Part shown: positions 36,623 through 58,662 of the stretch, piece by piece
How positions within the stretch are numbered: position 1 is the first letter of the stretch
Layout of the letters: the number at the start of each line of letters is the position of its first letter
Origin: Patescibacteria group bacterium
GTDB taxonomy: Bacteria; Patescibacteriota; Microgenomatia; 0-14-0-10-38-17
DNA length: 64,000 nucleotides
Assembly: GCA_050953885.1 (NCBI GenBank)
Contig: JBMNNJ010000001.1
Location: 207,437-271,436, forward strand
Direction: 5' to 3'
The notes under the pieces: generated by a model
Told to the model about the DNA's origin: nothing
Seen by the model: only the letters and a program-made list of their open reading frames with translations
Databases searched by the model: none
Position numbers and translations under genes: made by a program

Positions 36623-37049
36623 TTTTAGTTTTCCCGGAAGAATTTAATTGCTCAAAGGTTTACAATATCTTACCTAAAAAATTGAAATAAGGCAATTTTT
36701 AACCTGTCATTGTGAAGCTAATCAACGCCGGGGGTTAAATAGCTTCATCTGAAGAACGCAGATCCTGACTTTCGTCAGGATGACAGCTACGGGGATGATT
36801 CCCGCCAGGCGGATTCGTCAGAGCTTGTCCTGAATTTAATTCAGGAATGACAGCTACGATTAGTGTGCCTATTTAAATCCGGGGGTTTGAAGCTATCAAG
36901 GAAAGCGCTTTTACTGCGAATAATTAATAATAGTTAATATTATCTGCCTTTGGCGCAAAAATCCCGAGGTTCGAAGCTATTTAACTCCGGGGGTTTGAAG
37001 CTATTTATTCAAATTATTAGGAGCATAACCCCTATGTTAAACTAAATTT

Positions 37050-37718
37050 ATGAAAAAGTTCTTTCTGCCTTTTCTTGGCCTCATCGCTCTTTTTCTAGGT
37101 CTTAATAACCTTAATCTTCGCCAGGAAATTCAAAAATTAACCGCCCAAAACAAAGTTATCGAAGTTATTGACGGCGATTCTCTAACCTTAGCCTCCAAAC
37201 AAAGAGTTCGCCTGGCCAATCTTGATGCTCCCGAATTGGAGTTTTGCGGCGGCATTGAAGCGAAGAATAAACTTGAATCCCTCACTCTAAATAAGACTGT
37301 CCGCTTGGAAATAATCGGCCACGACAACCTGAACCGCTCGATTTCTTTAGTTTATGTTGACAATACTCTGGTTAACGAAATCGTTCTCAAAGAGGGCTGG
37401 GCTCGCTATGACGGCTCGCCTTCGCCGGAAAAAGAAAAATTAAAACAAGCTTATGATTATGCCTTTGAAAACCGGCTAGGGATTTTCAGCCCCTTGTGTT
37501 TTTCCGAAGAGCCACCCAGCCCCAAATGCCTAATTAAAGGCAATGTCGACCGCCATTATGGCCAAAAAACCTATCATTTCCCCGGTTGTAGTGGTTATCC
37601 CCAAGTAATGGTAGAAAAAGACTTAGGCGAAGATTGGTTTTGTTCAGAAAAAGAAGCTGAAAAAGCTGGCTTTACCAAATCCAAAAATTGCTATGGTAAA
37701 ATATACGTTCCTATTTAA
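37050..37718 (+). CDS. secreted thermonuclease (staphylococcal-nuclease/SNase-like) with a Cys-containing C-terminal module
   Basis: Signal peptide. SNase active-site region RLANLDAPE, OB-fold. C-terminal KGNV...YHFPGC...WFCSEKEAEKAGF module. Confidence 0.8.
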   Translation: MKKFFLPFLGLIALFLGLNNLNLRQEIQKLTAQNKVIEVIDGDSLTLASKQRVRLANLDAPELEFCGGIEAKNKLESLTLNKTVRLEIIGHDNLNRSISLVYVDNTLVNEIVLKEGWARYDGSPSPEKEKLKQAYDYAFENRLGIFSPLCFSEEPPSPKCLIKGNVDRHYGQKTYHFPGCSGYPQVMVEKDLGEDWFCSEKEAEKAGFTKSKNCYGKIYVPI

Positions 37719-37951
37719 CCCCCGGAGTTAAATAGCTTCAAACCTCGGGAAAAATATATAATTTTGAACTTACCTCTCCGGCGCGAGCGCCAAAACTACT
37801 GGGCAGGTAGACAAAAATTTAAAACTCTGTTAAAATAGAGAAAACCGAAGAAAAACCAAATATTTGTTTGAAAATTAAAGCTGATGGTAGCATAAAAAGG
37901 CTAAGAGGGATTTCTGGCTTGCTAAAAAATTTTTAATCATCCTTATTACTC

Positions 37952-38440
37952 ATGTTGATTATTCATCCCCAGCCCAATCAGTGGAAAATGTATAGAAAGA
38001 TTCGATTAGCGGCCTTAAAAGAAGATCCGCAAGCCTTTGGCCGCTTTTTTAAAGAAGAAAAAACATATTCCAAAGAAAAATGGTTAGAACGAGTAAATAA
38101 TGACTACAGTCTACTGGCTCTTGAAAACAACAAACCGATAGGAATAATCAGCGCCTATATTACCGAAGAAAAAAACAACAAAGTTGCCCATGTCGTTAGT
38201 GTTTTTGTTCTTAAAGAAGCTCGTGGTAGGGGTGTTGGGAAAAAGTTGCTTAATGCCGTCTTAGAGAAAATAAAAAAAGACCCGACCATTAAAAAAGTTG
38301 TTCTATCTGTAAACAAAGAGCAAATTCCCGCTGTCAAGCTATACCAAAAATTTGGTTTTGAAATTATTGGCCAAAAGCCCGAGCGATTGGGTGATGGCAA
38401 AAAACACATAGAATACGAGATGGAACTATCTTTGAAGTAA
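37952..38440 (+). CDS. GNAT-family N-acetyltransferase
   Basis: Motif A RGRGVGKKLL, GNAT fold length. Confidence 0.8.
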   Translation: MLIIHPQPNQWKMYRKIRLAALKEDPQAFGRFFKEEKTYSKEKWLERVNNDYSLLALENNKPIGIISAYITEEKNNKVAHVVSVFVLKEARGRGVGKKLLNAVLEKIKKDPTIKKVVLSVNKEQIPAVKLYQKFGFEIIGQKPERLGDGKKHIEYEMELSLK

Positions 38441-38556
38441 AGGCCCCAAAAGTAACCTAGGCCAAGAAACCACCTAGCCATCTAGAGGGAAACCCTGTTA
38501 TTTCGTAGCTATTTAACCCCCGGAGTTGATTAGCTTTTATAATGGAAGCCTGAAAC

Positions 38557-39345
38557 ATGTCTTCGAAGAGGCGCTTGAAGAAAAGCTGTAAAGTTTCTAC
38601 TACAATACAAATGGGCATTACTGGCAACAATAAAAAAACAAAAACCGAAATCTGTCACAAACATTTCTTGCAAATTCAAGAAAAGTTAGCTACTAACACG
38701 TGGGCAAAAGAAAAACCTAAAGGGAAAAAAGAAATAATAAAACTCTTAAGAATTTGCAATCAGGCATTTGGGAAAATTCCTGGATATATTAAAGTTCTTA
38801 AATCAATATCAAAAAACTTAAATGAAAACGATTCAATTAAATGGCTAAATTATTTTTCTCAAATTCGATGTGCATATTATCTACAAACACAAGGGGTTAG
38901 TATTACCGCCTTTGAGAAAAAAGTAAATGGAAAATTAATTGATTTAGAAATAAATGAGGCAACGCTTTGTGAAGTTAAATCTTTCGAACCTCAACTTAAA
39001 AAAACAGAAAACGCAATAGAATTAGAGGAAGATGTCTTTAAAAACTTTCTTGAAAATAAAATTAAAAAGGCTCTAGATGAACAAAAAGCTGACTTAGTTA
39101 TAATTGATGATATTTTTTCTTATGAATCTAAAATCTACAGATTTTTAAATTATTTCTTATCGTTCATTAATGATCCTGGTACTGAGCGTTATGAAATGAT
39201 CCAAAAAAAATTTGGTAAATATCTACCTAAAATTCTAATTCTAAGTTTTACAAGCTCAATGGCCATTAATCCCATTATCAGAGACCCAATGGGTAGCGAG
39301 TGGGTTAAAATATTGTCATTAAACAAAGCCAAAAATCATGAATAA
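38557..39345 (+). CDS. AT-rich orphan protein; weak PD-(D/E)xK-like arrangement (IDLEINE...CEVKS)
   Basis: Intact 262-aa ORF, compositionally more AT-rich than its neighbours, bracketed by family C repeats. Confidence 0.4.
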   Translation: MSSKRRLKKSCKVSTTIQMGITGNNKKTKTEICHKHFLQIQEKLATNTWAKEKPKGKKEIIKLLRICNQAFGKIPGYIKVLKSISKNLNENDSIKWLNYFSQIRCAYYLQTQGVSITAFEKKVNGKLIDLEINEATLCEVKSFEPQLKKTENAIELEEDVFKNFLENKIKKALDEQKADLVIIDDIFSYESKIYRFLNYFLSFINDPGTERYEMIQKKFGKYLPKILILSFTSSMAINPIIRDPMGSEWVKILSLNKAKNHE

Positions 39346-39571
39346 AAAAAGCTATTCGACCCCCGGAATTGATTAGCTTCAAAACTCGGGAAAAATATGT
39401 AATTTTGAACGTGCCTCTCCGGCACGGGCGCCAAAACCACCTGGCCAGGTAGCTGAAAAACCTAGCCTTAATCACCCCAAGGGTTGATTAAGGCACTCCT
39501 ATCGAGTATACTTGTACAATACTTCAAGGCACTACCGATAATTTACGCCAATACGCATAAATTTAAAATTC

Positions 39572-39958
39572 ATGATAAAATCTAAAATAAAAGAATTAAG
39601 TTATGAAAAAATGAAAGAAATCGAGAATTTAACAAAAGAGATTGTTTCTTTTCGAGACGAAAGAGAATGGAAACAATTTCATAACCCGAAAGACATGTCT
39701 TTGTCTCTAGTTCTGGAAGCAGGAGAAGTGATGGAGCACTTCCAGTGGAAAAACGGAGAAGAGATGGAAAAATATGTTACCGAGCATAAAGATGAAATTG
39801 GCGAAGAGCTTGCTGACGTTTTATATTGGATTTTGCTTATAAGCCACGACCTTAATATAAACATTCTCGAAGCTTTAGAAAAAAAAATAAAGAAAAATAA
39901 AGAAAAATATCCTGTAGAAAAAGCAAAGGGAAGACATACAAAATATACAGATCTTTAG
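39572..39958 (+). CDS. MazG-like nucleoside-triphosphate pyrophosphohydrolase (all-alpha NTP-PPase)
   Basis: EAGEVMEHFQW (E-x-x-E) and EELADVLYWILLIS (E-E-x-x-D) metal-binding motifs, 128 aa. Confidence 0.75.
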   Translation: MIKSKIKELSYEKMKEIENLTKEIVSFRDEREWKQFHNPKDMSLSLVLEAGEVMEHFQWKNGEEMEKYVTEHKDEIGEELADVLYWILLISHDLNINILEALEKKIKKNKEKYPVEKAKGRHTKYTDL

Positions 39959-39981
39959 CTTTTTGATGTTTTCGATAGAAA

Positions 39982-40689
39982 ATGCTCTCCAAAAGAAAAA
40001 ATAAGCTCGTAGCAAAAAAGAAATTGCAAGAGGGACATAGAGAAAGATTGCGGCAAAGATTTTTACAAGGAGGACTCGATTCCTTCCTCGATTACGAAGT
40101 TGTTGAATTACTTTTGACGCTAGGAACCCCCCGCAGGGATTGCAAGTCTATTGCTAAAGAAATAATTAAAAAATTTGGAAATTTATGTAACGTTCTTGAT
40201 GCTTCTCCGGAAGATCTGCAAGAAATATATGGCGTAGGCCCTAACAACATATTTGGTTTAAAATTATTTCAGGCAATATCAGAGCGATATACCGGCGAAA
40301 AAATTCAAAAAAAAGAAATTCTCAATAACCCTAAGGCAGTATTTGATTACCTTAAAAATCTTATTGGAAAAGAGAAAAAAGAAAGCTTTGTGGTTATATC
40401 ATTAAACTCAAAAAACCAATTAGTCAAAATTAATAAAATATCGTTAGGAACTGTTGATGCAAACATTGTGCACCCTAGAGAAGTCTTCCAAGCAGCCATT
40501 AAAAATTTAGCAACGCAAATAATTATAGCCCATAATCATCCCTCGGGTAGCCTAGAGCCGTCTCCGGAAGATGTTGCTTTAACTAGGCAATTGTTAGAAG
40601 CTTCTTCAATCTTAAGCATTCCGCTCATTGATCATATAATTGTTACCAACAAGGAATACTTAAGCATGAAGGAACATAATTTCATATAG
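39982..40689 (+). CDS. radC: RadC-like JAB/MPN-domain protein with an N-terminal HhH
   Basis: N-terminal HhH (EIYGVGP) and JAMM motif IIIAHNHPSGSLEPSPEDVALT. Starts 24 bp after the mazG-like stop. Confidence 0.85.
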   Translation: MLSKRKNKLVAKKKLQEGHRERLRQRFLQGGLDSFLDYEVVELLLTLGTPRRDCKSIAKEIIKKFGNLCNVLDASPEDLQEIYGVGPNNIFGLKLFQAISERYTGEKIQKKEILNNPKAVFDYLKNLIGKEKKESFVVISLNSKNQLVKINKISLGTVDANIVHPREVFQAAIKNLATQIIIAHNHPSGSLEPSPEDVALTRQLLEASSILSIPLIDHIIVTNKEYLSMKEHNFI

Positions 40690-40695
40690 GCTGAA

Positions 40696-42564
40696 ATGAT
40701 TCTTTACGAAGGAACAATTGAACAATTTAATCAAGATGTTATCCAAAACTGCATCGCTGACAGGGCGGCCGAAAAATATCAAGCCCACTACAATAGAAGA
40801 CCCAACAATTCAGAGTACCGTTCATGGGCTTACTCTCTGGCTATACTTAACAATTCTTTCCGTTATGCAAATCTTAAAGACAATTATGTTCTTCTTGAGT
40901 ATGAGCTTCCATACTCCTCACAAAGAATAGATGTTATACTTTTCGGAGAAAATTATCAGGACCAAAAAAATGTTGTCGTGATCGAATTAAAACAATGGTC
41001 CAATGATAATGTGTCACCCGCAGAATCAAAAGGAAATGTAATTGTTAATTACGGAAGATTTAAAAAAGAAGAACCTCATCCCTCTTTGAAAGTTCAGGGA
41101 TACCATTTTTATCTCAAGGATTTTATAAAGCTTTTTACTGAAAAGAATGCTCCCAACCTTAACTCTTTGGCATATGCTCATAATTATTCCCGAGAAAGAG
41201 GGGGCGTGTTGTTTTCTGATGAGTTTCAATCTGCTTTAGCGGAATTTCCTCTATTTGCAAAAGAAGATTCGATTAAGTTAGCAAACTACTTAAAAGATCG
41301 GCTAAGTAAAGGGAGAGGACAAATTCTTTACGAACGATTTGCTAGAAGCAAAATTGGCCCCTCTAAAAAGCTTCTCGCACATACTTCAGAAATGATTAAT
41401 AAGCAACAAGTTTTTAATTTAATTGACGACCAAATCGCTGCTTATAATGCAATAATGCACAAAGCAAAAAAGCTCTCGGGAACAGAAGAAAAGTCAGTGA
41501 TTTTAGTTAATGGTGGCCCAGGTACCGGCAAATCGGTTATCGCTTTGGAAGTTATGGGAGAGCTTTTAAGACAGGGTAAAAAGGTGGTTCATGCTACTGG
41601 GTCATCAGCTTTTACTAATACATTAAGGAGTCTTGTTGGTTTAAGGGCTAAAAATCTTTTCAAATTTTTTAACAGCTTCACAAGAGCGAACCCTAATTGT
41701 TTTGATGTTCTAATTTGTGATGAAGCTCATCGGATAAGGGAGTCAAGTGCGGATAGATACACCCCAAAAGAGCTAAGGACCAATGACCCCCAAATAGATG
41801 AATTGCTACGAGTTGCCAACCTCAGTGTTTTTTTTATAGATGAATATCAAATTGTAAGACCAAATGAAGTGGGTAGCATCGAAATGATTAAGAACGCAGC
41901 TAAAAGATTTAATATCAAAACCAAAAATATTATCGAATTTGAGCTGAAAACACAGTTTCGTTGTTCCGGCTCCGATGCTTACCTTCAATGGCTTGATAAT
42001 GTCTTAGGGATCAGAGAAACAGGGATTACCGAATTTGATACTAAAATGGAGTTTAAAATATTTGAAAATCCTCAAAAAATGATGAACGAAATTAGGGAAA
42101 GGAATAAGGAAAAGCCCAACTCTGCTCGTATAGTTGCTGGTTTTTGCTGGCCATGGAGTAACCCTCGGCCAGACGGATCGCTAGTGAATGATGTAAAAAT
42201 TGGAGATTTCGAAATGCCTTGGGAAAAAAAGAATCAATTTTGGAAGTGGGCAACAGATAAATCAGGCATGGAGCAAGTTGGCACTGTCTATACTGCTCAA
42301 GGGATGGAGTTTGATTATATCGCGGTAATTTTTGGTAACGACCTTGTTTATAACCCCCAAAAAAATGAATGGGAAGCAATACCTGAAAATTCTTATGACA
42401 CACAGGTTAAGAGAAACAACCCTAATCTAGAAAATCACTTAAAGCATGTTTACCGTGTTTTAATGTCTCGTGCCCATATGGGAGTTTATGTTTATTTTAT
42501 GGATAAAAAAACAGAAGATTATTTTAGAAGACATTTGCCCAAGCTCCCTTCTGCTTCTAAGTAA
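40696..42564 (+). CDS. DUF2075-type protein: N-terminal PD-(D/E)xK-like nuclease module fused to an SF1 P-loop helicase (Nhi-like)
   Basis: RIDVILFGE...VVVIELKQW (D...E-x-K), Walker A NGGPGTGKSV, Walker B DEAH box VLICDEAHRI, C-terminal VYTAQGMEFDYIAV UvrD-C-like motif. Starts 7 bp after radC. Confidence 0.75.
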   Translation: MILYEGTIEQFNQDVIQNCIADRAAEKYQAHYNRRPNNSEYRSWAYSLAILNNSFRYANLKDNYVLLEYELPYSSQRIDVILFGENYQDQKNVVVIELKQWSNDNVSPAESKGNVIVNYGRFKKEEPHPSLKVQGYHFYLKDFIKLFTEKNAPNLNSLAYAHNYSRERGGVLFSDEFQSALAEFPLFAKEDSIKLANYLKDRLSKGRGQILYERFARSKIGPSKKLLAHTSEMINKQQVFNLIDDQIAAYNAIMHKAKKLSGTEEKSVILVNGGPGTGKSVIALEVMGELLRQGKKVVHATGSSAFTNTLRSLVGLRAKNLFKFFNSFTRANPNCFDVLICDEAHRIRESSADRYTPKELRTNDPQIDELLRVANLSVFFIDEYQIVRPNEVGSIEMIKNAAKRFNIKTKNIIEFELKTQFRCSGSDAYLQWLDNVLGIRETGITEFDTKMEFKIFENPQKMMNEIRERNKEKPNSARIVAGFCWPWSNPRPDGSLVNDVKIGDFEMPWEKKNQFWKWATDKSGMEQVGTVYTAQGMEFDYIAVIFGNDLVYNPQKNEWEAIPENSYDTQVKRNNPNLENHLKHVYRVLMSRAHMGVYVYFMDKKTEDYFRRHLPKLPSASK

Positions 42565-42755
42565 CCTATTAAAACGAAGGCGTAAGGGCCCTAACGACTA
42601 TAATTAATAAAAAATTTTATTAGAAAAATAAAAGCTTGCAGGCATAAAAAACGGAGTAGCCAATTTTTTGCTAGGCTCTATGAGCTCAACCAAGAATTCG
42701 AAGCTATTTAACCCCCGGAGTTGATTAGCTTGATAACCTTAACTCAAATAAAACT

Positions 42756-43199
42756 TTAATTTTCTTCAGGCTTAAATTGTCCATCTTCGTATACATATTT
42801 CACTTCAGTCAGGTCGTTTGAGTTAACTTCTTCTGCATAAAGCAAAGTAAAACCATTCCCTACTTCTACCTCCTCTGGGGATTGCTTAACTCCAATCCTC
42901 ATCTTTTCATCACTTTCAAAAACAACCCTGCCTTCATCAATAACCCACAGCTTACCTGCTCCTTGAGTCATAGCTACAGGAATTATTACTAAACTTTCTG
43001 ACAAATCATCTCCATCCACATCCATACTAAAGTATTCTGGACACCTTCCTAAAAAACATTCCGGAAGTTCTTGACTTACAATTTTTTCTTTTTGAGCAGG
43101 AACGTTAATTTTTGTACTTCTTGAAAAATATCCAATCGCAAAACCTAAAAGGATAAAAATTAAATAGGCTAAAAACTTGCCTACTGTAATCTTAGACAT
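42756..43199 (-). CDS. small membrane-anchored hypothetical protein convergent on the island operon
   Basis: N-terminal TM helix, acidic C-terminal domain. Confidence 0.45.
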   Translation of the reverse strand: MSKITVGKFLAYLIFILLGFAIGYFSRSTKINVPAQKEKIVSQELPECFLGRCPEYFSMDVDGDDLSESLVIIPVAMTQGAGKLWVIDEGRVVFESDEKMRIGVKQSPEEVEVGNGFTLLYAEEVNSNDLTEVKYVYEDGQFKPEEN

Positions 43200-43313
43200 A
43201 AGACTATTCTATCAAAAATTGATAAAACTAGGCAAACAAGGTTAAAAAAAGAAAGAAACTTAACTATAAATTTGAAGCTATTTAACCCCCGGAGTTGATT
43301 AGCTTTTGAATTT

Positions 43314-44585
43314 TGCGTGAAATGCTTGAAATGCATGAGACGTTTGAAACGTAAAAACATTAAACGGTTCAGGCGATTCAAGCCTCAAGCTTTGAAGCAT
43401 CAAGTCTTAAGGCAGATCCTGATTTTCATCAGGATGACAACTACCTTGATTCAGAATCAGTTAGCTAAAAGTTAAAATTCAAAATTTAAAAGTCAAAAGT
43501 ACAAGTCAAAATTCAAAAGTAGAGCAAAAAACTTTTAACTTTTAACTTGTCCGCCGGCAGGCGGATTCGTTAAAATGACGGCCACGATTAGCGTCATTCT
43601 GAACTTGATTCAGAATCGTTATTATTGTCAGAAAACACAGATCCTGACTTTCGTCAGAGCCTGTCCTGAATTTAATTCAGGAATGACAGTTACCTTGATT
43701 CAGAGTCGTTATTAATGTCAGAAAACGCAGATCCTGACTTTCGTCAGGATGACGGTTGCGATTAGCGTCATTCTGAACTTGATTCAGAATCTGTGTTATT
43801 GTCAAAAAACGCAGATCCTGACTTTCGTCAGGATGACGGTTACAGGTTCTGACTTTCGTCAGAATGACGGTTACGGGACTACAGGAATAACCCTGCCCAC
43901 CAGCCGACGGACAAGTTAAAACTCAAAACTCAAATGTCAAATCTCAAAACTACATGTTAAAACTTAAAACTACATGGTAAATGTTAAAACTTTTTAAAGC
44001 TTAATTCGTCAGAATGATGACAGCCGTGCCGTCATTCCGGACTTGATCCGGAATCGGTGTTAATGCCTAAAGAACGCAGATCCTGACTTTCGTCAGGATG
44101 ACGGTTATCTGAAGAACGCAGATCCTGACTTTCGTCAGGATGACGGCCACGATTAGCGTCATTCCGGACTTGATCCGGAATCGGTGTTATTGTCAGAAAA
44201 CGGTAGATCCTGACTTTCGTCAGGATGACGGCTACGGGGATGATTCCCGCCAAGCGGATTCGTCAGGATGACGACAGTCGTGCCGTCATTCCGGACTTGA
44301 TCCGGAATCGGTGTTAATATCTGAAGAACGCAGATCCTGACTTTCGTCAGGATGACAGCTATGGGGATGATTCCCGCCAGGCGGATTCGTCAGAATGACG
44401 GCCACGATTAGCGTCATTCTGAACTTGATTCAGAATCAGTTAGATCCTGACTTTCGTCAGGATGACGCTTTCGTCAGAGCCTGTCCTGAATTTAATTCAG
44501 GAATGACGGCCACGGCAGGATAATTTTATTCGCTCATTCGTGTTGATTCGTTTCCCATTCGCGTTGCTTCGTGTCTTTGGTCCAA
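43314..44585. repeat. about 1.25-kb BIME/REP-like composite array: one family D 100-bp unit, CAAAA/AAAGT low-complexity tract, CCGCCAGCTGGCGG-type palindromes, more than 20 short hairpins in repeating units of about 95 bp, ending in a CGAAT-periodic unit
   Basis: Three hairpin types (ATCCTGAC-TTTC-GTCAGGAT, ATTCTGAA-CTTGA-TTCAGAAT, TCCTGAATT-TAA-TTCAGGA) each followed by ATGACGG. They recur with conserved linkers such as GCGATTAGCGTC and GTTATTGTCAGAAAACGCA. No unique spacers. Confidence 0.85.
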
Positions 44586-44644
44586 AAATCTTGTGCTAAA
44601 ATGAAGAAAGATAAAAGAATCGCTTTTGGAAATTAAAATTCGCC

Positions 44645-45400
44645 ATGAATCACTACCGCCAACGGGAAACCAATCTTTACCAGCCCGGCCAGGAAAGACC
44701 TTTTTGGTTAAGCCGCTCCAAGATTGATCTTTTTTTGGAATGCCCCCGCTGTTTTTACCTTGACCGCCGCTTGGGTTTGAGCCGTCCCGGCATGCCTTCT
44801 TTTTCCCTAAACTCCGCCGTTGACCAGCTTTTAAAAAATGAATTTGACCTCCTGCGCCAAGAAGGCAAACCCCACCGGCTGATGGAAAAATACCGCATTG
44901 AGGCCATTCCCCTAAATCATCCCGATCTTCCCCTCTGGCGCGACGATGTCCACCGCTGGGAAGGGGCCCATGTTCACCACCAGCCCACCAATTTTGAAAT
45001 AAGCGGCATTGTTGACGACATCTGGGTAGACCGGAAAAATAATTTCTACATTGTGGACTACAAATCCACCAGCACCACAGCGGAGATTTCCCTTGAAGAT
45101 GAATACAAGCAAGGTTATAAAAAACAAATCGAGGTTTACCAGTGGATTTTTAGAAAAATGGGCTTTAGCGTTGCCAACACCGCCTATTTTGTCTACGCCA
45201 ACGCCAGCAAAAACCGCCCCCGCTTTGACGGCCGTTTGGAATTTGAGGTGCAAATTATCACCTACGAGGGCAATGACGCGTGGGTAGAGCCCACCCTTAA
45301 GGAGATTAAAAAATGCCTTGATTCCCCCAAAGTGCCCGCCGCCGACCCCGATTGCGAATATTGCCGTTATCGCCAATTAATCAGCCAGAAACTTAAATGA
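44645..45400 (+). CDS. Cas4/RecB-like PD-(D/E)xK nuclease with Fe-S cluster cysteines (stand-alone)
   Basis: IVDDIWVD...FYIVDYKST (D...D-x-K) core. N-terminal CPRCFYL and C-terminal C-x13-C-x2-C cysteines. Confidence 0.65.
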   Translation: MNHYRQRETNLYQPGQERPFWLSRSKIDLFLECPRCFYLDRRLGLSRPGMPSFSLNSAVDQLLKNEFDLLRQEGKPHRLMEKYRIEAIPLNHPDLPLWRDDVHRWEGAHVHHQPTNFEISGIVDDIWVDRKNNFYIVDYKSTSTTAEISLEDEYKQGYKKQIEVYQWIFRKMGFSVANTAYFVYANASKNRPRFDGRLEFEVQIITYEGNDAWVEPTLKEIKKCLDSPKVPAADPDCEYCRYRQLISQKLK

Positions 45401-45717
45401 TTTCTCTTGAAGACTTTCAAAAGTTGGACATCAGGGTAGGGGAGGTAAAAGAAGCCGCGGCGGTGGCCGGCAGTAAAAATCTTTTCCTCTTAAAAGTTAG
45501 CCTGGGTAAAGAAGAACGCCAAATTGTTTCCGGTTTGGCCGGCTTTTACCAGCCCGAAGAACTTTTAGGCAAACAGGTTATTCTTCTTGCCAATCTTGAA
45601 CCAAGAGTAATTTTTGGCCTTGAAAGCCAGGGAATGCTTTTGGCCGTTGACAGTGGCGCGGAAGTGGCCCTGCTCACCCCTGATCGCAAAGTAACCCCGG
45701 GCAGTCCGGTAAAGTAA
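45397..45717 (+). CDS. tRNA-binding (Trbp111/CsaA/Myf-domain) protein; start overlaps the upstream stop as ATGA
   Basis: LDIRVGEV...LKVSLGKEERQIVSGLAGFY...GMLLAV OB-fold tRNA-binding signature. Confidence 0.8.
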   Translation: MISLEDFQKLDIRVGEVKEAAAVAGSKNLFLLKVSLGKEERQIVSGLAGFYQPEELLGKQVILLANLEPRVIFGLESQGMLLAVDSGAEVALLTPDRKVTPGSPVK

Positions 45718-45734
45718 AAAAATTACCTTGAGGG

Positions 45735-46310
45735 TGATTTATGCGAATTGAGACGAACGAAAAACGAATTAACACGAAAAATAAACTCAAATCTCAAATC
45801 TCAAAACGCAAAACTACATGGTAAATGTTAAAACTTTTTAAAGCTTAATTCGCCAGCGGGCGGATAAAATCATGCGTGAAATGCTTGAAATGCAGGAGAC
45901 GTTTGAAACGTAAAAACATTAAACGGCTCAGACAATCAAGCCTCAAGCGTTTCAAGCATCAAGCTTTAAGACAGATCCTGACTTTCGTCAGGATGACGGT
46001 TACGGGGATGATTCCCGCCAGGTGGATTCGTCAGAATGATGACAGCCGTGCCGTCATTCCGGACTTGATCCAGAATCAGTGTTATTGTCAGAAAACGCAG
46101 ATCCTGACTTTCGTCAGGATGACAGCTACCTTGATTCAGAATCGTTATTAATACCTAAAGAACGCAGATTCTGACTTTCGTCAGAATGACGGTTACGGAA
46201 AGCGTCAGGATGACGACAGCCGTGCCGTCATTCCGGACTTGATCCGGAATCTGTGTTATTATCAGAAAACGCAGATCCTGACTTTCGTCAGGATGACAGC
46301 TACAGGTTTG
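45735..46310. repeat. composite repeat array (CGAAT-periodic unit, CAAAA tract, family D 100-bp unit, hairpin cluster)
   Basis: Built from the same modules as 43314-44585. The ORF-track 'proteins' here (45876-46151, 46155-46367) are repeat translations. Confidence 0.8.
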
Positions 46311-46337
46311 ATTTTTGCATTTTGAATTTATTCTTAT

Positions 46338-46619
46338 ATGGTTCAGGCTAAAATCTCCGTTTCTCATCTGGCCAAATTAGCCAACCTCCATCTTTCTTCC
46401 CCAGAAGAAAAATTAATCGGCCCCCAAATTGAGGAAGTGGTGGGCTCTTTTTCGGTTTTGGACCGCGTTTCGGCTTTGGAAAAACTTCCCCCCACTTTTC
46501 AGGTGGGCCAAAACGAGAATATTCTCCGGCCCGACGAGGTTCAACCCTCCCTGGCGCGCCCAAAAATTCTTGGCAAAAATACTTTTTTTACCACCAAAGC
46601 CGTTTTAACCAAAAAATGA
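46338..46619 (+). CDS. gatC: Asp/Glu-tRNA amidotransferase subunit C
   Basis: ISVSHLAKLANLHLSSPEEKLIGPQIEEVV matches the GatC core. Immediately upstream of gatA. Confidence 0.8.
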   Translation: MVQAKISVSHLAKLANLHLSSPEEKLIGPQIEEVVGSFSVLDRVSALEKLPPTFQVGQNENILRPDEVQPSLARPKILGKNTFFTTKAVLTKK

Positions 46620-48040
46620 AGCCCAAAACAAATTTTGCCGAAAAAAGCCCTTCTCTTTTGGCCTGGCAGGAAAAACTCCAAAAAGAAGAGGTAAAAAGCG
46701 AAGAAATTATCTCTTTTTACCTGGAAAAAATTAAAGAAAAAGATCGGGTTTTAAATGCTTACTTAAGCGTTAATCCCCAAGCTTTGGATCAAGCCCGCGA
46801 GGCGGATCGGGAAATAAGCGGCGCCGCTGATAAAAAGCTTCTTTTTGAAAAAAAGCCGCTTTTGGGCTTGCCTTTGGCCATTAAAGATAATTTTTGTACC
46901 CTCGATTTGCCCACCACCGCCGCTTCCCGAATTTTAGAAAACTGGCAAGCTCCCTATGAGGCCACCGTGGTTAGCCGCCTGAAAAAAGCGGGCGCCATTA
47001 TTTTGGGAAAAACCAATATGGACGCCTGGGCTCATGGCTCCTCCACGGAAACTTCCGACTTTGGCGAGACAAGCAACCCCTACGACATTAACCGCGTTCC
47101 CGGCGGTTCTTCGGGGGGTTCGGCCGCCGCCGTGGCCGCGGCGATGGCTCCCGCCGCCATCGGCTCGGAAACAGCCGGCTCCATTCGCCAACCGGCCGCC
47201 TGGTGCGGAGTGGTGGGTTTAAAACCCACCTATGGCCGCGCTAGCCGCTGGGGGCTGATTGCCATGGCCTCGTCTTTGGACTGCCCCGGACCGCTCACCC
47301 AAGATGTTGCCGACGCCGCCCTGCTTTTGGCAATTATCAGCGGTCAAGACCCTCATGATGCCACCAGCATTCAGGAGCCAAGCCTTGAAATAAAACCTAA
47401 CCCCCGCCTTGATTCCTCCCTCACTATCGGCATTCCCCGCCAATACTTGGAAATCGCCGCTCCCGAAATTCAAGAAAAGATAGAAAAAATTATCAGCCGG
47501 CTTGAGAAAGAAAAAATTAAAATTAAGTTTATTTCTTTGCTTGACCCGAAAATCAGCATGGCCGTTTACGCCATTGTCCAGCGCGCCGAGGTTTCCTCCA
47601 ACCTGGCCCGCTATGACGGCATTCGTTTTGGGAAAAACCGCTCTTTTTTTGGTTTGGAGGCCAAGAGAAGAATTATCACCGGCACTTTCGTTCTCTCCGC
47701 CGGCTACTTTGACCAGTACTATCTTAGGGCCCAAAAAGCGCGTACCAAAATTAGCCAAAATTTTGCCCAAGCTTTTGGGGAAGTTGACTTGATCCTTGCC
47801 CCCACTTCGCCTAGCGCCGCCATTGAAAAAGGCGGGCAGGAAAAAGAGCCGCTTTTTGGTGAAAAGCAGGATATTCTGGTGGAAGCCAGCTCTTTGGCCG
47901 GCCTTCCCGGCATCAGCCTTAACGCCGGTTTTACCAAAGAAGGCCTGCCGGTGGGAGCGCAAATTATCGGCCCGGCCAAAAGCGAGGAAAAAATTCTCAA
48001 TTTTGCCTGCTTTTTGGAAAAAAAGATATCAGAAAATTAA
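46616..48040 (+). CDS. gatA: Asp/Glu-tRNA amidotransferase subunit A (amidase signature)
   Basis: Amidase signature GGSSGGSAAAVAA and catalytic Ser-cisSer-Lys context. Confidence 0.9.
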   Translation: MKPKTNFAEKSPSLLAWQEKLQKEEVKSEEIISFYLEKIKEKDRVLNAYLSVNPQALDQAREADREISGAADKKLLFEKKPLLGLPLAIKDNFCTLDLPTTAASRILENWQAPYEATVVSRLKKAGAIILGKTNMDAWAHGSSTETSDFGETSNPYDINRVPGGSSGGSAAAVAAAMAPAAIGSETAGSIRQPAAWCGVVGLKPTYGRASRWGLIAMASSLDCPGPLTQDVADAALLLAIISGQDPHDATSIQEPSLEIKPNPRLDSSLTIGIPRQYLEIAAPEIQEKIEKIISRLEKEKIKIKFISLLDPKISMAVYAIVQRAEVSSNLARYDGIRFGKNRSFFGLEAKRRIITGTFVLSAGYFDQYYLRAQKARTKISQNFAQAFGEVDLILAPTSPSAAIEKGGQEKEPLFGEKQDILVEASSLAGLPGISLNAGFTKEGLPVGAQIIGPAKSEEKILNFACFLEKKISEN

Positions 48041-48043
48041 AAA

Positions 48044-49318
48044 ATGAAAAGAAAACTTTCCCAAACCGTCTTTGGCAGCAGCAGTTTTTTAAAGCTCTGG
48101 GGGGTGCAAATTTCCTCGGTTGTCAGCGCCAATATCCTTCTTTTCTCCTCCATTAACTTTATTTTTAGCCACACCCAATCAACTATCGCCGTCGGCCTTT
48201 TAACCTTCTTTTATTATCTTCCCACCGTTATCTTAGGTTTTTTCAGCGGCGCGGTGGTAGATCGTTTCCCTAAAAATAAAATTTTAGTTATTTCCAGTCT
48301 TGCTCAAGCCCTTTTTGTCTGGCTTTTTTTAGGAATAAAAACACGTCCTTTTCTTATTTACCCCCTTGTTTTCCTTTATTCTTCTTTTGATGAATTTATC
48401 AATCCCACCATCGGCACCCTTTTGCCGGAAACGGTTAAAAAAGAACATCTGGGTGAAGCCAACAGCGTTTGGCTTTTTTCCTCGCAGGGAGCGGTAATTT
48501 TAGGGTCAATCGGCGCCGGTTTGTTTTTAAAAATTCTCCCCAGCCTTTACGCAATTTATCCTCTTATTAGCCTTGTCCTTTTTACGGGAGTAATTTTTTC
48601 TCTCCTGCTTTTTAAATCTTCCCCAAAGCTGGCAACCGTAAAAAGGCAAAACCGCCAACCGGTAGACTTTGAAGAATTTCTTCAAGAGGTTAAAGACGGC
48701 TATCACTTTGTTCGCCAAGAAAAAGCCATTCTTTTCCCCCTCCTTCTTATCGCCCTAACCCAAATGGTCACCGGCAGTGGCGTTATCGCCCTTCCCGCTA
48801 TCGCTCAAGCGCTTAAAATTCAGTTTGCTGACGCTTCCTTTTATTTAATTACCCCCGCTCTTTTGGGGGCAATTAGCGGTAGTTTCCTGGTAAGCAAAGT
48901 CATTCGGGAGAAAACAATCAGGAAAAAAACCCTTATTATTAAAAGTCTTATTTCCTGCGGATTAATTATTCTTCTAGTAAGTTTGGCGGCGATTTTCTTA
49001 CCTCGGCCAATTTTCGCCGCTTCTCCTCTTCTTTTCTTGGGCGGCTTTGCCTTCGTTTTCCTTCTTGTCCCCGCCCAAACTTTAATTCAGGAAAATTCCC
49101 CCCTAAATCTTCGCGGCCGGGTTTACGGCGCTCTTTCGGTACTGGTGACCATTGCTGCCGCCATTCCCGTCCTTTTAACGACCATTTTTGTCGAATTTTT
49201 GGGCGCAAAAACTTTTTTGGCTCTTGCCGGGGCGGCCATTTTAATGGCAGGCCTTTACCTCCAAAAACACCAGCAAGCAATTTTTGCCCAATTTAAAAAC
49301 AATGGAAAGAAAAAATAA
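48044..49318 (+). CDS. MFS-type transporter inserted between gatA and gatB
   Basis: About 12 predicted TM helices, MFS length and loop pattern. Confidence 0.7.
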   Translation: MKRKLSQTVFGSSSFLKLWGVQISSVVSANILLFSSINFIFSHTQSTIAVGLLTFFYYLPTVILGFFSGAVVDRFPKNKILVISSLAQALFVWLFLGIKTRPFLIYPLVFLYSSFDEFINPTIGTLLPETVKKEHLGEANSVWLFSSQGAVILGSIGAGLFLKILPSLYAIYPLISLVLFTGVIFSLLLFKSSPKLATVKRQNRQPVDFEEFLQEVKDGYHFVRQEKAILFPLLLIALTQMVTGSGVIALPAIAQALKIQFADASFYLITPALLGAISGSFLVSKVIREKTIRKKTLIIKSLISCGLIILLVSLAAIFLPRPIFAASPLLFLGGFAFVFLLVPAQTLIQENSPLNLRGRVYGALSVLVTIAAAIPVLLTTIFVEFLGAKTFLALAGAAILMAGLYLQKHQQAIFAQFKNNGKKK

Positions 49319-50639
49319 TTTCTCACCCGTAATCGGCTTGGAAATCCATTTGGAGCTGACCACGGCCAGCAAGATGTTTTGCCCCTGCCCGGCCGATCAT
49401 TTTGGCAAAGAGCCTAACACTCAAACCTGCCCGGTTTGTCTTGGCCTGCCCGGCGCCTTGCCCGTACCCAACAAAGAAGCGATTCGTCGCACCCTGCTTT
49501 TGGCCCTTGCCTTAAATTGCCAAATTAATACCCATACTTGGTTTGACCGCAAAAATTACTTTTACCCTGACCTGCCTAAAGGCTATCAGATTAGCCAATT
49601 TTTCAAGCCCTTAGGGATAAACGGTCAATTAGCCCTTTCCTCGGGAAAGAAAATTAACATCCGCGAAATCCATTTGGAAGAAGACACCGCCAAATCTCTC
49701 CATCGCGACGGCCACACCCTGCTTGACTTTAATAAATCGGGGGTTCCTTTAGTGGAAATTGTCAGCGAGCCGGATTTGGCCTCGGCCGAAGAGGCAGTTG
49801 ATTACGCCAAAACTCTCCATACTCTGATAAGAAAAATTAAAATCAGTCCGGCCGATATGGAAAAAGGGCAGTTAAGGCTGGAAGCTAATATTTCCTTAAA
49901 AAAAGATCCTCAAGACCCCTTGCCAAATTATAAAGTAGAGGTGAAAAACATCAACTCTTTTAAGTTTTTGAAAGACGCCATTACCTACGAAATTAAGCGG
50001 CAAAAAGAACTTCTTGAAAACAACAAGAAAATTATTCAGGAAACCCGGGGTTATGACGCCAAAAACAAGAAAACTTTTTCCCAACGGACTAAAGAAGAAG
50101 CTTATGAATACCGTTATTTCCCCGAACCGGACATTCCCCCATTAAATCTTGAAGAGGTTTTTGACTTTGACAAGCTTAAGGAAGAAATTCCCGAACTGCC
50201 CGAGCAAACAATAAGGCGGTTGGAGACCGATTATCAATTAGCCGCTGCCGACGCGCAAATTTTCTCAAAAAGCAAAAAGGCTCTTGATTATTTTGAAAAA
50301 GCGGTGAAATTTGGCCAAAAGGAAAATATCGGTCCCCAAGAAATCGCCAACACCATCATTAATAAGCGCCTCCCTTGGGAAAAGCTTTCTCCCCAAGAGC
50401 TAATTTTAAAAATTAAAAGCCAAAAAGAGCAGGAGTTGGTGGGGGGAGGGGAATTGGCAAGCATCATTAACCAAGTGCTTGCCAAAAATCCCCAGGCGGT
50501 GGCCGATTTTAAAAAAGGAAAGGAAAACGCTCTCGGCTTTTTAATCGGCCAGGTGCAAAAAGAAACTAAGGGAAAGGCCGATGTCCGCCAGGCGCAAGAG
50601 ATGCTAAGACGCGAATTAACACGAATGAGAAGCGAATAG
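49284..50639 (+). CDS. gatB: Asp/Glu-tRNA amidotransferase subunit B; likely true start ATG at 49302
   Basis: VIGLEIHLELTTASKMFC N-terminal motif, C-terminal GatB/YqeY tail GFLIGQVQKETKGKAD. Confidence 0.85.
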   Translation: MPNLKTMERKNNFSPVIGLEIHLELTTASKMFCPCPADHFGKEPNTQTCPVCLGLPGALPVPNKEAIRRTLLLALALNCQINTHTWFDRKNYFYPDLPKGYQISQFFKPLGINGQLALSSGKKINIREIHLEEDTAKSLHRDGHTLLDFNKSGVPLVEIVSEPDLASAEEAVDYAKTLHTLIRKIKISPADMEKGQLRLEANISLKKDPQDPLPNYKVEVKNINSFKFLKDAITYEIKRQKELLENNKKIIQETRGYDAKNKKTFSQRTKEEAYEYRYFPEPDIPPLNLEEVFDFDKLKEEIPELPEQTIRRLETDYQLAAADAQIFSKSKKALDYFEKAVKFGQKENIGPQEIANTIINKRLPWEKLSPQELILKIKSQKEQELVGGGELASIINQVLAKNPQAVADFKKGKENALGFLIGQVQKETKGKADVRQAQEMLRRELTRMRSE

Positions 50640-51180
50640 ACGCGAATGAGCGAATAACTGGCGCAAAAATAATTCAAAAGGCAAAAGTCAAAATTCAAAA
50701 TTGCAAGTCAAAAGTTAAAAGTTTTTTGCTCTACTTTTGAACTTTAACTTGTACTTTTGACTTTTGAATTTTGACTTTTAACTTTTAGTTATTCGATTCT
50801 CTCCGCTACGCTGGCAGACAGAATCATATTTTTCCCGGGGTTTGAAGCTAATCAACTCCGGGGGTTAAATAGCTTCAAACCTTGGGATTTTTGAATTTAA
50901 TTCAGGAATGACGGTTGCGATTAGCGTCATTCTGAACTTGATTCAGAATCGTTATTGTTATTAATGTCTAAAGACACAGATCCTGACTTTCGTCAGGATG
51001 ACGGACGGGGCGGTTACAGGTTCTGACTTTCGTCAGGTGACGGCCACGATCAGCGTCATTCTGAACTTGATTCAGAATCGTTATTGTTATTAATGTCAGA
51101 AAACGCAGATCCTGACTTTCGTCAGGATGACAGTTACGGAACTACAGGAATAATCCTGTCCGCCAGTTGGCGGATGGCGT
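50620..51180. repeat. composite repeat array (CGAAT unit overlapping the gatB 3' end, 130-bp AAAGT/CAAAA inverted-repeat tract, family C unit, hairpin cluster)
   Basis: Same modules as the other arrays. 50670-50790 is itself a near-palindrome. Confidence 0.8.
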
Positions 51181-51267
51181 TTTTTATTACGCATTGCCCA
51201 TTACCCATTACAAGTTACGCCTTATTCCCCCAACACCAGAAGATAATGCTATACTAAGAAAGAGGGT

Positions 51268-54200
51268 ATGTCTTCGCCGAAAAACAACACACCAGAATTC
51301 GTCCATCTTCATGTCCACAGCGAGTATTCCCTGCTTGACGGTTTGTCAAAAATTGAAAAATTAGTCGGTAAAACCAAAGAGCTGGGGATGAACGCCGTTG
51401 CCTTAACCGACCACGGCGTCATGTATGGGGCGATTAAATTTTATAACGCCTGCCGTCAGGCGGGAATTAAGCCGATTATCGGGTGCGAAATGTATCTTAC
51501 CCCCAAATCGCGTTTTGAAAAAAGCGGCGGCGCGCAGGAAGGAAAAGAGCTTTACCATCTCTTGGTTTTGGCCAAAAATTACGAGGGTTACCAAAACCTA
51601 ATGCAACTGGTAACTCGGGCGCATTTGGAGGGGTTTTATTATAAACCCCGCCTTGACTGGGAGCTTTTGGAAAAATATCACCAAGGCCTGGTGGTCACCA
51701 CCGCTTGCCTACAGGGAATTCTTCCTTCTCTTTTATTGGGAAACCGCGAAGAAGAAGCGCGGGCAGCGGCCCAAAAATTATGGGAAATTTTTGGCGACGA
51801 TTTTTATTTGGAGCTTCAAGATCATCCTAAAATTACCGACCAGAAAAAAGCCAACCGGCTTTTAGTCAAGCTCTCCCGCGAAATTGGCCTGCCGCTTTTG
51901 GCCACCAACGACAGCCATTATCTTAATCCCGAAGACGCCCAAGCCCAAGACGCTCTTTTGGCCATCGGCACCCAAAAAAAAATTAACGACCCCAAGAGGC
52001 TTTCCATGCTTGACTCCCCCGATTTTTATCTTAAGTCCCCGCAGGAAATGGCGACGGCTTTTGCGGATTACCCCGAGGCGATTACCAACACCGTTGCCGT
52101 GGCCCAAAAATGCCAGCTGGAAATTCCCTTGGGTCAAAAAATTTATCCCTCTTTCCCTTTGCCGGCAGGGAAAACTGCCCCCCAATATCTTAAAGATTTG
52201 GTTTGGGAACGAGCGCCCAGGCGTTACCCGAAAATTACCTCCGAAATTAAAGAAAGAATTAATTATGAACTGGAAATTATTATTAAAATGGGTTATGCCG
52301 AATATTTTTTAATTGTTCAGGATTATGTTAACTGGGCCAAAGCACAGGGAATAAGAGTCGGCCCGGGGCGGGGCAGCGGCGCCGGTTCCATCGTTGCTTT
52401 TATTTTAAGAATTACCTCCATTGACCCTCTCGAACACCATCTTCCTTTCGAGCGCTTTTTAAACCCCGAACGCCAATCAACTCCCGATTTTGATATCGAC
52501 TTTTCCGACGACCGCCGCGACGAGGTGATTGAGTATGTTCGCCAAAAGTATGGCGAGGACCGCGTGGCCAACATTATCACCTTTGGCACTATTGAGGCCC
52601 GCATGGCGGTGCGCGACATTGCCCGGGTGCTTGATTATCCTTATGCCACCGGCGATCGCCTGGCCAAAATGATCCCCGCCGAAGCAGGCAGAAAAACAAG
52701 TTTGGATGAAGCCCTCAAGCTTAACCCCGAACTGGCCCTGGCTTATAAAACCGAAAAAGAAACTCGGCAGATTATTGATTTGGCCAAGGGGATCACCGGT
52801 GTGGCTCGCCACGCTTCCACCCATGCCGCCGGGGTGGTTATCGGCGATAAACCTTTAGTCTGCTATACCCCTTTGCAAAAAGAAAGCCGAGGAGAGCGGA
52901 TTACCACCCAATACGACATGTATTCTTTAGATTTAAATGTGGCCGACGATGCCATTGGTCTTTTAAAAATGGACTTCTTGGGATTGCGCAATTTAACCAT
53001 TCTGGAAAAGGCGATTGATTTTGTTGAAAAAACAGAAGGGGAAAAAGTTGATATTTCCGAAATTCCTTTAGATGATAAAAAAGTTTACGAGATGATTTCG
53101 CGGGGCGAAACTACCGGTGTTTTCCAGCTTGAAAGCGAGGGAATGCGACGTTTGGCCCGCAATCTTCAGCCTTCGCGTTTTTCCGACCTTTCCGCCATGG
53201 TCGCTCTTTTCCGCCCGGGGCCAATGCAGTTTATCGACGATTTTGTTAACCGCAAGAAAAACCCCCGCCTGATTGACTACCCTCATCCCGACCTGCGACC
53301 AATTTTGGAGGAAACTTACGGCATTATCGTTTATCAAGAACAGGTGTTGCAAATTGCTCACGAGATGGCCGGTTTTTCCCTGGGCCGGGCGGATATTTTG
53401 CGCCGGGCAATGGGCAAGAAAAAAGCCTCGCTCATGGCTAAAGAAAAAGAGGATTTTATTAAGGGTTGCGTGGCCAAGGGGTATCCCAAAAAAACGGCCG
53501 AGCAGGTTTATTCTTTTATCGAAAAATTCGCCCAGTACGGCTTTAATAAAGCCCATTCCGCTTCTTACGCGATGATTGCCTACCAAACCGCGTGGATGAA
53601 AACCCACTATCCGGTAGAATTCACCGCCGCCCTTCTTTCCACTGAAAGCGACAAATCGGAAAAGAGGCTGGTCTTGGCCATTGATGAATGCCGGCGGATG
53701 GGCATTAAAATTCTTCCTCCCGATATTAACATCTCCCAGGCCGCCTTTACAATCGAAAAAAGCCCCGACTCACTTGAGGGAAAAACGATCCGCTTTGGCC
53801 TTTCGGCGATTAAAAACGTCGGCGAGGCGGCGATTGAGGCGATTTTGAAAGAACGAGAAAAAGGAGAATTTAGTTCGCTAACCGATTTTTGCCTGCGCGT
53901 TGATACCCAAAAAGTTAATAAAAAAGTTTTGGAAAGTTTAATTAAAGCCGGCGCCATGGATCGCTTCGGCAAAAGAGCCGCCCTTTTAACGGCGCTGGAA
54001 GAGATTAGAAAACGGGGTGAGCAAGAGCAAAAAAACCGCCTTAATCATCAGGCCAGTCTTTTTGGTCAGGAAGAAGCGGTAAAAATTACCCGCGACAAAT
54101 TGCCGCCGGTGGCCGAATTTTCCCCGCAGGAGATTAAAAAATTTGAAGAAGAACTTTTGGGATTTTCCCTAAATGGCGGCCCTCTTTGGGATAAAAATTT

Positions 54201-54768
54201 AGCCCAAAAATTTGACCAGAAAATTGCCGATGTTTTAGGGCTGCCGGCGGGAAGCCGGGCCAAAATTTTAGGGGTTATTGATCAGGCAAGAACGGTTTTT
54301 ACCCGCAACGGCAATCACGAAATGGCTTTTTTAAAAATTGTTGATGAAACCGGCCAAATTGAGGCGGTGGTTTTCCCCAAAATTTTTGCCGAAACGCGCG
54401 AAAAACTGGTTGCCGGTCAGGCGGTGGCTTTGGTCGGAAAGCTGGATGAACGCGAGGAAGAAAAGTCCTTTCTGGTTGATAAAGTCTACTCTCTTGATGA
54501 GGCAAAGAAAAATTTTCTCAACGGCGAGGAAGACTATGATTTTACCATTATTATCCCCGAGAAAACCCGCCCTCAAGAACTGATGTCCTTAAACAAACTT
54601 CTTAAAACTCATCCGGGAGAAAAAAAGGGGCTTTTAATTTTTCAACAAAAAAATGGGGAAAAGTCTTTAGCCCTTAACTTTGGGGTTGACTTCACTTCCA
54701 CTTTAGAGGGAAAAATTCAAGAATTGTTAAATACCAATTCCTCTGCTATAATAAACGCCAATGACTAA
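51268..54768 (+). CDS. dnaE: DNA polymerase III alpha subunit DnaE
   Basis: PHP domain [15 protein letters not shown], polymerase core, OB domain, 1166 aa. Confidence 0.95.
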
Positions 54769-55099: not shown

Positions 55100-55171
55100 G
55101 CAGCAAAGGACATACTTAATGCCATCCTGGACTTGATTCAGGATCTTAAAAGATGCTGAATTAAATTCAGC

Positions 55172-58380: not shown

Positions 58381-58382
58381 GC

Positions 58383-58660: not shown

Positions 58661-58662
58661 AG

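Follow-up and report, generated by a model that had tools for sequence, protein, structure and literature searches.

Di Nocera, De Gregorio and Rocco 2013 (PMC3733652) described repetitive extragenic palindromes (REPs) tagged with CGTC or TGTC, whose stem of 8-9 bp has A-T complementary residues at positions 1 and 2, whose loop is 4 or 5 nt long and whose short unpaired tail has the consensus CCA. These CGTC REPs, of which Neisseria dRS3 is a member, are high-copy, extragenic and arranged as inverted dimers, often heterodimers. They were reported from 5 phyla, mostly from alpha-proteobacteria, with clusters mainly in Neisseria and Wolbachia, and without association to genes for REP-associated tyrosine transposases (RAYTs) or other tyrosine transposases (PMC3733652). 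Chenal et al. 2025 found that the Neisseria NTS (CGTCATTCCCGCG...GCGGGAATC) is bound, as single-stranded DNA (ssDNA) only, by SsnA, a 94-aa single-domain GIY-YIG nuclease of the Ssn family (cd10448) that cuts a few nucleotides upstream of the NTS and does not bind RNA (PMC11893778). Here we analyzed short hairpins that are reiterated across a 64,000-nt stretch of contig JBMNNJ010000001.1 (the window, whose positions are used throughout), above all in an array at 43314-44585. With a probability of roughly 60%, these hairpins are CGTC-tagged REPs of the superfamily that comprises Neisseria dRS3/NTS and the Ssn-related motifs (SRMs), with an Ssn nuclease as partner. Their classification in the CGTC-REP/Ssn-motif class is well supported.

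In its own orientation, the hairpin unit consists of a 5' YGTC tag, an 8-bp stem starting with AT, a GAAA or CTTGA loop and a C tail. The stems of types A and B (ATNNNNNN, 8 bp) carry GAAA or CTTGA loops, while type C departs from both in its 3-nt loop and in being without the AT foot. Predicted ssDNA folding energies ranged from -6 to -9.4 kcal/mol. All five variants listed in an initial annotation of this DNA were recovered, and a sixth, ATTCTGAC/GTCAGAAT, was also found. The types are as follows.

Type A: CGTC-ATCCTGAC-GAAA-GTCAGGAT-C, with the variants ATTCTGAC/GTCAGAAT and ATCCTGAT/ATCAGGAT
Type B: CGTC-ATTCTGAA-CTTGA-TTCAGAAT-C
Type B': CGTC-ATTCCGGA-CTTGA-TCCGGAAT-C
Type C: CGTCAT-TCCTGAAT-TAA-ATTCAGGA-C

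A scan that was blind to the flanks identified 42 perfect palindromes in the window whose arms pair over 8 bp around a loop of 4-5 nt. Thirty-five of them carried a GTC tag on exactly one side and a C on the opposite side, and the remaining 7 were sequences unrelated to the family. Perfect copies of the strict architecture, from GTC through the 8-bp stem and the loop to the C, numbered 35 at the places already annotated, far above the 0.01 obtained in 100 Markov shuffles, and the YGTCATYC tag occurred 53 times compared to 3.6 expected. The tag was CGTC in 27 perfect copies and TGTC in 8, the first tail base was C in 35/35, and the bases after this C were TGC, GTT or GGT. Intact tagged hairpins numbered 41 (the 35 perfect copies and six of type C), besides a few with one mismatch and truncated copies; the figure of more than 60 given by the initial annotation is reached only when truncated copies and two other hairpin families are added. 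It had also been claimed that every hairpin is followed by ATGAC(G/A)G, which holds for types A and C on the plus strand and fails for type B, which is preceded by CGTCAT. On that strand, types A and C are inverted relative to type B, and the tail on A and C together with the leader before B therefore reads as one directional 5' CGTCAT tag.

Several features are common to the published CGTC-1 and CGTC-2 groups and the window hairpins: the latter have the same CGTC/TGTC tag and the 8-bp stem with AT at positions 1-2, the 4-nt loop of type A corresponds to CGTC-1 and the 5-nt loop of type B to CGTC-2, and the copies are extragenic, high-copy and organized in inverted (hetero)dimers without an adjacent transposase. 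All tagged A, B and C hairpins were intergenic, occurring in 11 of the 28 window intergenic regions of at least 100 nt. The non-coding share of the window was 17%, and the hairpin density was ~0.7 per kb. In contrast to CGTC-1 and CGTC-2, the tail is a C followed by variable bases and not CCA, the loop of type C is 3 nt long and its AT foot is missing, the copies form large clusters, and the host is a member of the candidate phyla radiation (CPR)/Patescibacteria. The window is a bacterial chromosome segment (dcw cluster, ClpB, GatCAB, DnaE, G6PD and four tRNAs), and its FtsZ shares 94% identity with a protein labelled Candidatus Shapirobacteria, indicating a Shapirobacteria-like CPR host. The class is thereby extended to a Shapirobacteria-like CPR genome at very high density. 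What is new here is the host phylum, the sequence variants outside the published pattern and the unusual density in a tiny CPR genome; the kind of system was already known. Compared to the Neisseria NTS/dRS3 and SsnA, the CGTCAT tag, the palindrome and the C are the positions reported as most important for cleavage and binding there (PMC11893778), and the SsnA-critical tag and C positions were invariant in 35/35 window copies. High density in a symbiotic lineage is a further likeness.

Inverted dimers with their tags facing outward were the dominant arrangement in every data set compared; the window held 13, with gaps mostly of 22-30 nt. The fixed linkers claimed by the initial annotation were confirmed in two tandem repeats, of 84 nt (x3) and 127 nt (x3.1), which are bounded by tagged hairpins. 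Both lie in the largest array, whose parts are listed below.

43314-44585, no strand, mosaic array of 1.2 kb, non-coding, with 17 intact CGTC-tagged hairpins, truncated copies and linker modules
43416-43438, minus strand, type A variant hairpin TGTC-ATCCTGAT-GAAA-ATCAGGAT-C
43467-43545, no strand, inverted tandem heptamers (AAAAGTC)n / (ACTTTTA)n
43550-43565, no strand, type D hairpin TCCGCC-GGCA-GGCGGA
43585-43841, plus strand, three tandem 84-nt units of type B (plus), a 22-25 nt spacer and type A (minus), tags outward
43593-43616 and 43767-43790, plus strand, B hairpins of the 84-nt units
43731-43753 and 43815-43837, minus strand, A hairpins of the 84-nt units
43641-43687, truncated A fused to type C, within the 84-nt units
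43847-43868, minus strand, type A variant with a 7-bp stem, TTCTGAC-GAAA-GTCAGAA
44004-44400, plus strand, 3.1 tandem 127-nt units, each with B' (plus), A (minus) and a GGGGATGATTCCCGCCAGGCGGATTCGTCAG linker
44031-44054, 44158-44181 and 44285-44308, plus strand, B' hairpins of the 127-nt units
44080-44102, 44122-44144, 44207-44229 and 44334-44356, minus strand, A hairpins of the 127-nt units
44413-44507, no strand, terminal group of B (plus, 44413-44436), A (minus, 44444-44466) and C (minus, 44484-44507)

The same hairpins recurred far outside the window. Among the matches listed, the exact 23-nt type A and 25-nt type B sequences were found in Sphingomonas, Bacteroidetes, Ignavibacteria, Gammaproteobacteria, Desulfobacteraceae, Spirochaetia and CPR, and the copies in these other lineages usually stood in the same tag-outward dimer. 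Viral contigs had a few A/B hairpins and no ssn. In Porphyromonadaceae metagenome-assembled genomes (MAGs; L012, L042, L085, L097, L113 and L115), a type A hairpin was followed by long tandem hexamer runs (CCGGCAACCGGTAAC...), echoing the pairing of hairpins with short tandem repeats in the window. Of the other element classes considered, integron attC sites were ruled out by the wrong core sequence and CRISPR by the lack of spacers, and Dam/GATC sites were dropped since they are present in type A only.

Ssn-like genes were found next to such hairpins in other genomes. In the three CPR loci that were fetched on purpose for their Ssn-like genes (L244, Daviesbacteria; L245, a Patescibacteria MAG; L246, Buchananbacteria), CGTC hairpins lay within 150 nt of the gene in 3/3 cases, and the L246 flank contained CGTCATTCTGAACTTGTTTCAGAATC, one loop base off window type B, plus a type-C-like element. 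In a Bacteroidetes MAG (L037) an exact type A hairpin precedes the start of the Ssn-like gene by ~120 nt, and in Sphingomonas faeni (L053) two exact type A hairpins bracket the gene. Ssn-like homologs of 97 aa, with PF01541 as their sole domain, were found in Daviesbacteria, Kerfeldbacteria, Buchananbacteria and an unclassified Patescibacteria MAG, and the catalytic spacing of the CPR proteins (Y9/Y20/E67) equals that of SsnA (Y6/Y17/E64). The hairpin-ssn-hairpin gene layout in other CPR genomes, with the hairpin types of the window, resembles that of Neisseria SsnA. From these likenesses, we infer that the window organism probably has a cognate Ssn nuclease. As a separate observation, the Ssn-like gene and its flanking hairpins in Daviesbacteria (GCA_030648645.1; L244 2490-5155) lie between recA and recX. 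Contigs with Ssn-like genes were mostly shorter than 3 kb, which is consistent with assemblies breaking at flanking repeats or with genes in several copies.

Four results weigh against this assignment. No ssn was found by regex, phmmer, jackhmmer or Pfam in ~88 kb of the organism or its sister strain, that is, the window plus ~24 kb of flanks (L122, 9 kb on the left, 100% identical; L251, 8 kb on the right; L250, an alternative left flank); the flanks had been retrieved with four window proteins. The same search over ~260 loci gave ssn in L037 and L053 only, besides the CPR loci fetched on purpose, and no Shapirobacteria-labelled Ssn turned up in protein searches. An Ssn-like gene occurred in only 2 of ~240 hairpin-bearing loci of other taxa (L037 and L053), a frequency that is expected because ssn is low-copy and that gives no statistical association of its own. 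The PDB held no solved Ssn structure, the nearest entries being UPF0213 GIY-YIG proteins at 27-29 bits. Finally, the published SRM pattern HGTCWYN(0-2)YYVSBRHN(0-5)WNVSBRGN(0-2)RNCYNB had 0 matches in the window (0.14 in shuffles). As controls, the NTS matched the pattern, and 97 matches, to GC-richer elements, were obtained in other loci. The pattern misses the window elements because their stems are AT-richer and their tails differ, so that censuses based on it undercount, missing AT-rich variants.

Compensatory changes in the arms, which the initial annotation had proposed, were confirmed at two levels. Within the window, 4 stem positions vary between variants, each compensated on the opposite arm; each variant is common to several copies, and there are therefore few independent compensatory events. 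Across taxa, we compared 34 loop-5 elements that were chosen only by the unpaired anchors GTCAT, CTTGW and ATC, with sequences selectable by the search pattern itself removed beforehand. Double changes were present in 6/6 variable pairs, 97.1% of cells were paired compared to 80.4% in shuffles, and 59 cells were double-changed compared to 18 in shuffles, a value reached in 0/500 shuffles. The pairing signal collapsed in slid registers. Pairing is under selection across many lineages.

A syntenic relative, GCA_018052565.1 (L249), whose FtsZ is 94% identical, had no CGTC hairpin in 16.7 kb. This stretch spans three orthologous sites that are occupied in the window, and the arrays missing there are therefore recent gains. 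The array positions given by the initial annotation were reproduced (3.4, 9.7, 17.6, 28.3, 36.8, 43.4-44.5, 46.0-46.3, 50.9-51.1, 60.9-61.1 and 62.0-62.1 kb), and the arrays and single copies outside the largest array are listed below.

3363-3385, minus strand, single type A hairpin that begins at the murB stop codon; absent in L249
9677-9828, no strand, inverted-orientation array between ftsW and murG, A (plus) and B (minus); absent in L249
17586-17609, minus strand, single type C hairpin; absent in L249
28274-28351, no strand, inverted array of C (plus), truncated A and B (minus)
36762-36851, minus strand, A and C hairpins adjoining an R2 copy, at the left edge of a variable island
45975-46297, no strand, array upstream of gatC with 5 intact hairpins, identical in a second strain
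46057-46075, B'/B hybrid with a mismatch, in the gatC-upstream array
50926-51131, no strand, array upstream of dnaE (B, A, B, A), adjoining the R2 copy at 50848-50870
55153-55176, minus strand, singleton variant TGTC-ATGCTGAAT-TTA-ATTCAGCAT-C
60934-61093, no strand, array of B, A', B', A'
62035-62144, no strand, array of B, A, C

The initial annotation had held that a lack of covariation and the absence of the arrays from close relatives would point to recent junk expansion; the covariation is real, and the arrays are missing at three orthologous sites in the relative. A selfish or neutral recent expansion without host function, with pairing kept only for propagation or by intra-hairpin templated repair, would account for the missing arrays and also for the near-identity of the window copies, whose 4 compensated positions are common to many copies. 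It is also favored by the nesting of other small hairpins in the loops of CGTC hairpins, at L001 2622-2676 (GTCATTCTGAACTT, 31 nt, ATTCAGAATC) and in L032, L074 and L104, which suggests that hairpin loops are insertion targets. However, the same 23-25-nt sequences across phyla and the invariant tag and tail argue for a conserved protein partner, and we regard an expansion of this kind as unlikely; it is, moreover, compatible with an Ssn partner, as it concerns host benefit and not mechanism.

The hairpins could also act at the RNA level, being transcribed and serving as terminators, 3'-end stabilizers or processing sites. All copies are intergenic, many lie downstream of co-directional genes, and short T-rich tails on their own strand gave 5 terminator-like sites compared to 1.6 in shuffles; an RNA role for REPs has been proposed earlier (PMC3733652). 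However, Rfam 15 at gathering score found only tRNAs in the whole window, and the best array match, engA, had 20.9 bits against a cutoff of 46 (E = 0.22). In the 34 cross-taxa elements, G-U wobbles were not favored over other mismatches (7 vs 8), which leaves no specific indication of RNA. The genes on either side of the largest array are divergent (42756-43199 on the minus strand and 44645-45400 on the plus strand), so that it lies in a divergent-promoter region, and both array orientations are seen where the genes share one strand (9.7 and 28.3 kb). The GTC tag and C tail that are conserved here are exactly the determinants by which SsnA, which does not bind RNA, recognizes ssDNA, and termination does not require tens of reiterated hairpins. 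The structured-RNA reading of the initial annotation thus found no support, and we consider a role at the RNA level distinctly improbable.

The initial annotation had compared the hairpins to REPs bound by RAYTs. As it stated, the window encodes no such enzyme: Pfam gave no match to a transposase, RAYT, integrase or GIY-YIG domain among the window open reading frames (ORFs) of at least 70 aa. A Y1_Tnp gene (PF01797, 224 aa) was found outside the window, 4.4-5.1 kb left of its base 1 and between ileS and mraZ, on contig Ga0591961_000687 (L122), which is 100% identical to window 1-12404. The protein has the HUH motif (NHFHF) and the tyrosine motif YIHLNP. A 53-nt hairpin, R2 (CCCGAGGTTCCTGCCTAATCAAC-CCCCGGA-GTTGATTAGCTTGCAACCTCGGG), stands on either side of the gene in a REPtron/TIRtron-like arrangement, and no CGTC hairpins flank the gene on L122. 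The window contains 6-7 copies of R2, all of which share two identical arm mismatches; these copies cluster within and near the variable island, and several adjoin CGTC arrays.

L122 3964-4638, Y1_Tnp gene, with R2 hairpins flanking at L122 3898-3951 and 4709-4761
43280-43302, plus strand, R2 copy GAAGCTATTTAAC-CCCCGGA-GTTGATTAGCTTC
36718-36740, 38511-38533, 39354-39376, 42706-42728, 50848-50870 and about 58215-58245, other R2 copies

The CGTC hairpins could be non-autonomous elements bound and mobilized by this Y1 (HUH) transposase encoded next to mraZ, as are the REPs of Escherichia coli bacterial interspersed mosaic elements (BIMEs) and the REPINs of Pseudomonas. The likeness to these systems lies in short tagged palindromes with alternating orientation and fixed linkers, with inverted dimers as the likely unit, and the BIME-like mosaic arrays of REP-like palindromes that the initial annotation described are borne out by the window. 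However, the E. coli and Pseudomonas elements are marked by a GTAG tag, by a Y1 transposase as partner and by a RAYT gene that their REPs flank, and the CGTC hairpins share none of these traits: the window tag is YGTC, CGTC REPs were reported without tyrosine transposase association (PMC3733652), and the Y1_Tnp score against NCBIfam REP_Tyr_transpos (50.8 bits) is below the 80-bit cutoff. Since R2 flanks the Y1_Tnp gene, the RAYT/TIRYT-like system of this genome belongs to another repeat family, and the link of the CGTC hairpins to a RAYT is very improbable. One reduced genome thus holds two separate hairpin-repeat systems, the CGTC hairpins and a Y1-transposase-associated family.

The largest array of CGTC hairpins lies at a site of strain variation. 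Two co-existing strains from JGI sample 3300060679 were identical over 44645-64000 except for one 139-nt tandem copy.

44556-44643, no strand, strain breakpoint, from the comparison with contig Ga0591961_000307

In the comparison over window 44556-55400, all 17 strain differences fell within 44559-44643, and the sequences to the left were unrelated. Left of the breakpoint, the window strain has the 1.2-kb array and an island with SNase, GNAT, MazG-like, RadC and Schlafen-type helicase genes (37000-43200), while the sister strain (L250 1-7400) has a shorter, different array, YgjP and a type I restriction-modification system (HsdS, HsdR and, upstream of them, a 516-aa ORF with no Pfam assignment). 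Being identical on the right and carrying different islands on the left, the strains thus place an island-swap breakpoint at the array edge, like the neisserial intergenic mosaic elements (NIMEs) next to variable genes; NIMEs and minimal mobile elements are among the closest known systems. NIMEs were reportedly described by Parkhill et al. in 2000 as arrays in which dRS3-type inverted repeats delimit repeat units of 50-150 nt. The 84- and 127-nt window units are likewise bounded by tagged hairpins and stand at this breakpoint beside strain-variable genes. They differ from NIMEs in unit sequences and phylum, and the dRS3 consensus ATTCCC-N8-GGGAAT is not matched, the closest window element being ATTCCGGA-CTTGA-TCCGGAAT. 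The comparison fits arrays acting as recombination junctions, with one breakpoint as its basis.

The 139-nt sequence forms a perfect tandem repeat of 2.2 copies at 58383-58682, by a tRNA-Glu gene (58662-58734, minus strand). The first 22 nt of each unit copy the 3' end of tRNA-Glu and resemble the scars of a reiterated attachment site, and the sister contig has one copy fewer.

Following the properties of SsnA (Chenal et al. 2025), the window hairpins would act as ssDNA, extruded in replication, repair or DNA uptake, and a small GIY-YIG Ssn nuclease encoded elsewhere in the genome would bind them and cut a few nucleotides 5' of the tag. A dimer would be bracketed by two predicted cut sites, because the tags face outward on opposite strands. 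This bracketing would fit both the dimer spreading as one unit and frequent recombination and rearrangement where arrays occur. The inverted dimers, with spacers of about 23-30 nt, and the fixed linkers are reiterated into NIME-like mosaics. A tag-outward heterodimer of B, spacer and A, ~75-85 nt long, recurs in Gammaproteobacteria, Bacteroidetes, Desulfobacteraceae and CPR. It is conceivable, if rather unlikely, that this heterodimer is the mobile unit of a non-autonomous element moved by Ssn via single-strand cuts on both strands, and that in naturally competent CPR bacteria that scavenge DNA the resulting arrays and Ssn set where incoming ssDNA recombines, driving the exchange of defence islands at the array boundaries. 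If true, movement of this kind would resemble transposition but differ in mechanism from HUH/RAYT. CPR bacteria are believed to rely on the uptake of DNA, and an Ssn system cutting ssDNA in CPR would be a testable link of repeats, competence and island turnover.

Three further repeat families were observed in the window. Type D hairpins (TCCGCC-N4-GGCGGA) had about 9 copies, and the only one found in a coding region was TCCGCC-AGCC-GGCGGA with GTCA before it (25036-25057), inside a PolX-family polymerase gene (24123-25958). Tandem 10-mers (ATTCGTGTTA / ACACGAATGA) were present at 3412-3451, 9610-9651, 26282-26319, 44520-44575, 45744-45786 and 50607-50656, right after stop codons or right upstream of promoter-like TGnTAAAAT boxes; none were seen in the L249 intergenic stretches examined. 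Inverted heptamer runs, (AAAAGTC)n then (GACTTTT)n, occurred in many intergenic regions (9898-9951, 28174-28214, 43467-43545, 50674-50786, 55605-55675 and 63689-63739) and would fold into long AT-rich hairpins. These runs were also present in the hairpin-free relative (L249 3190-3240 and 9910-10000), and are therefore older than the CGTC arrays.

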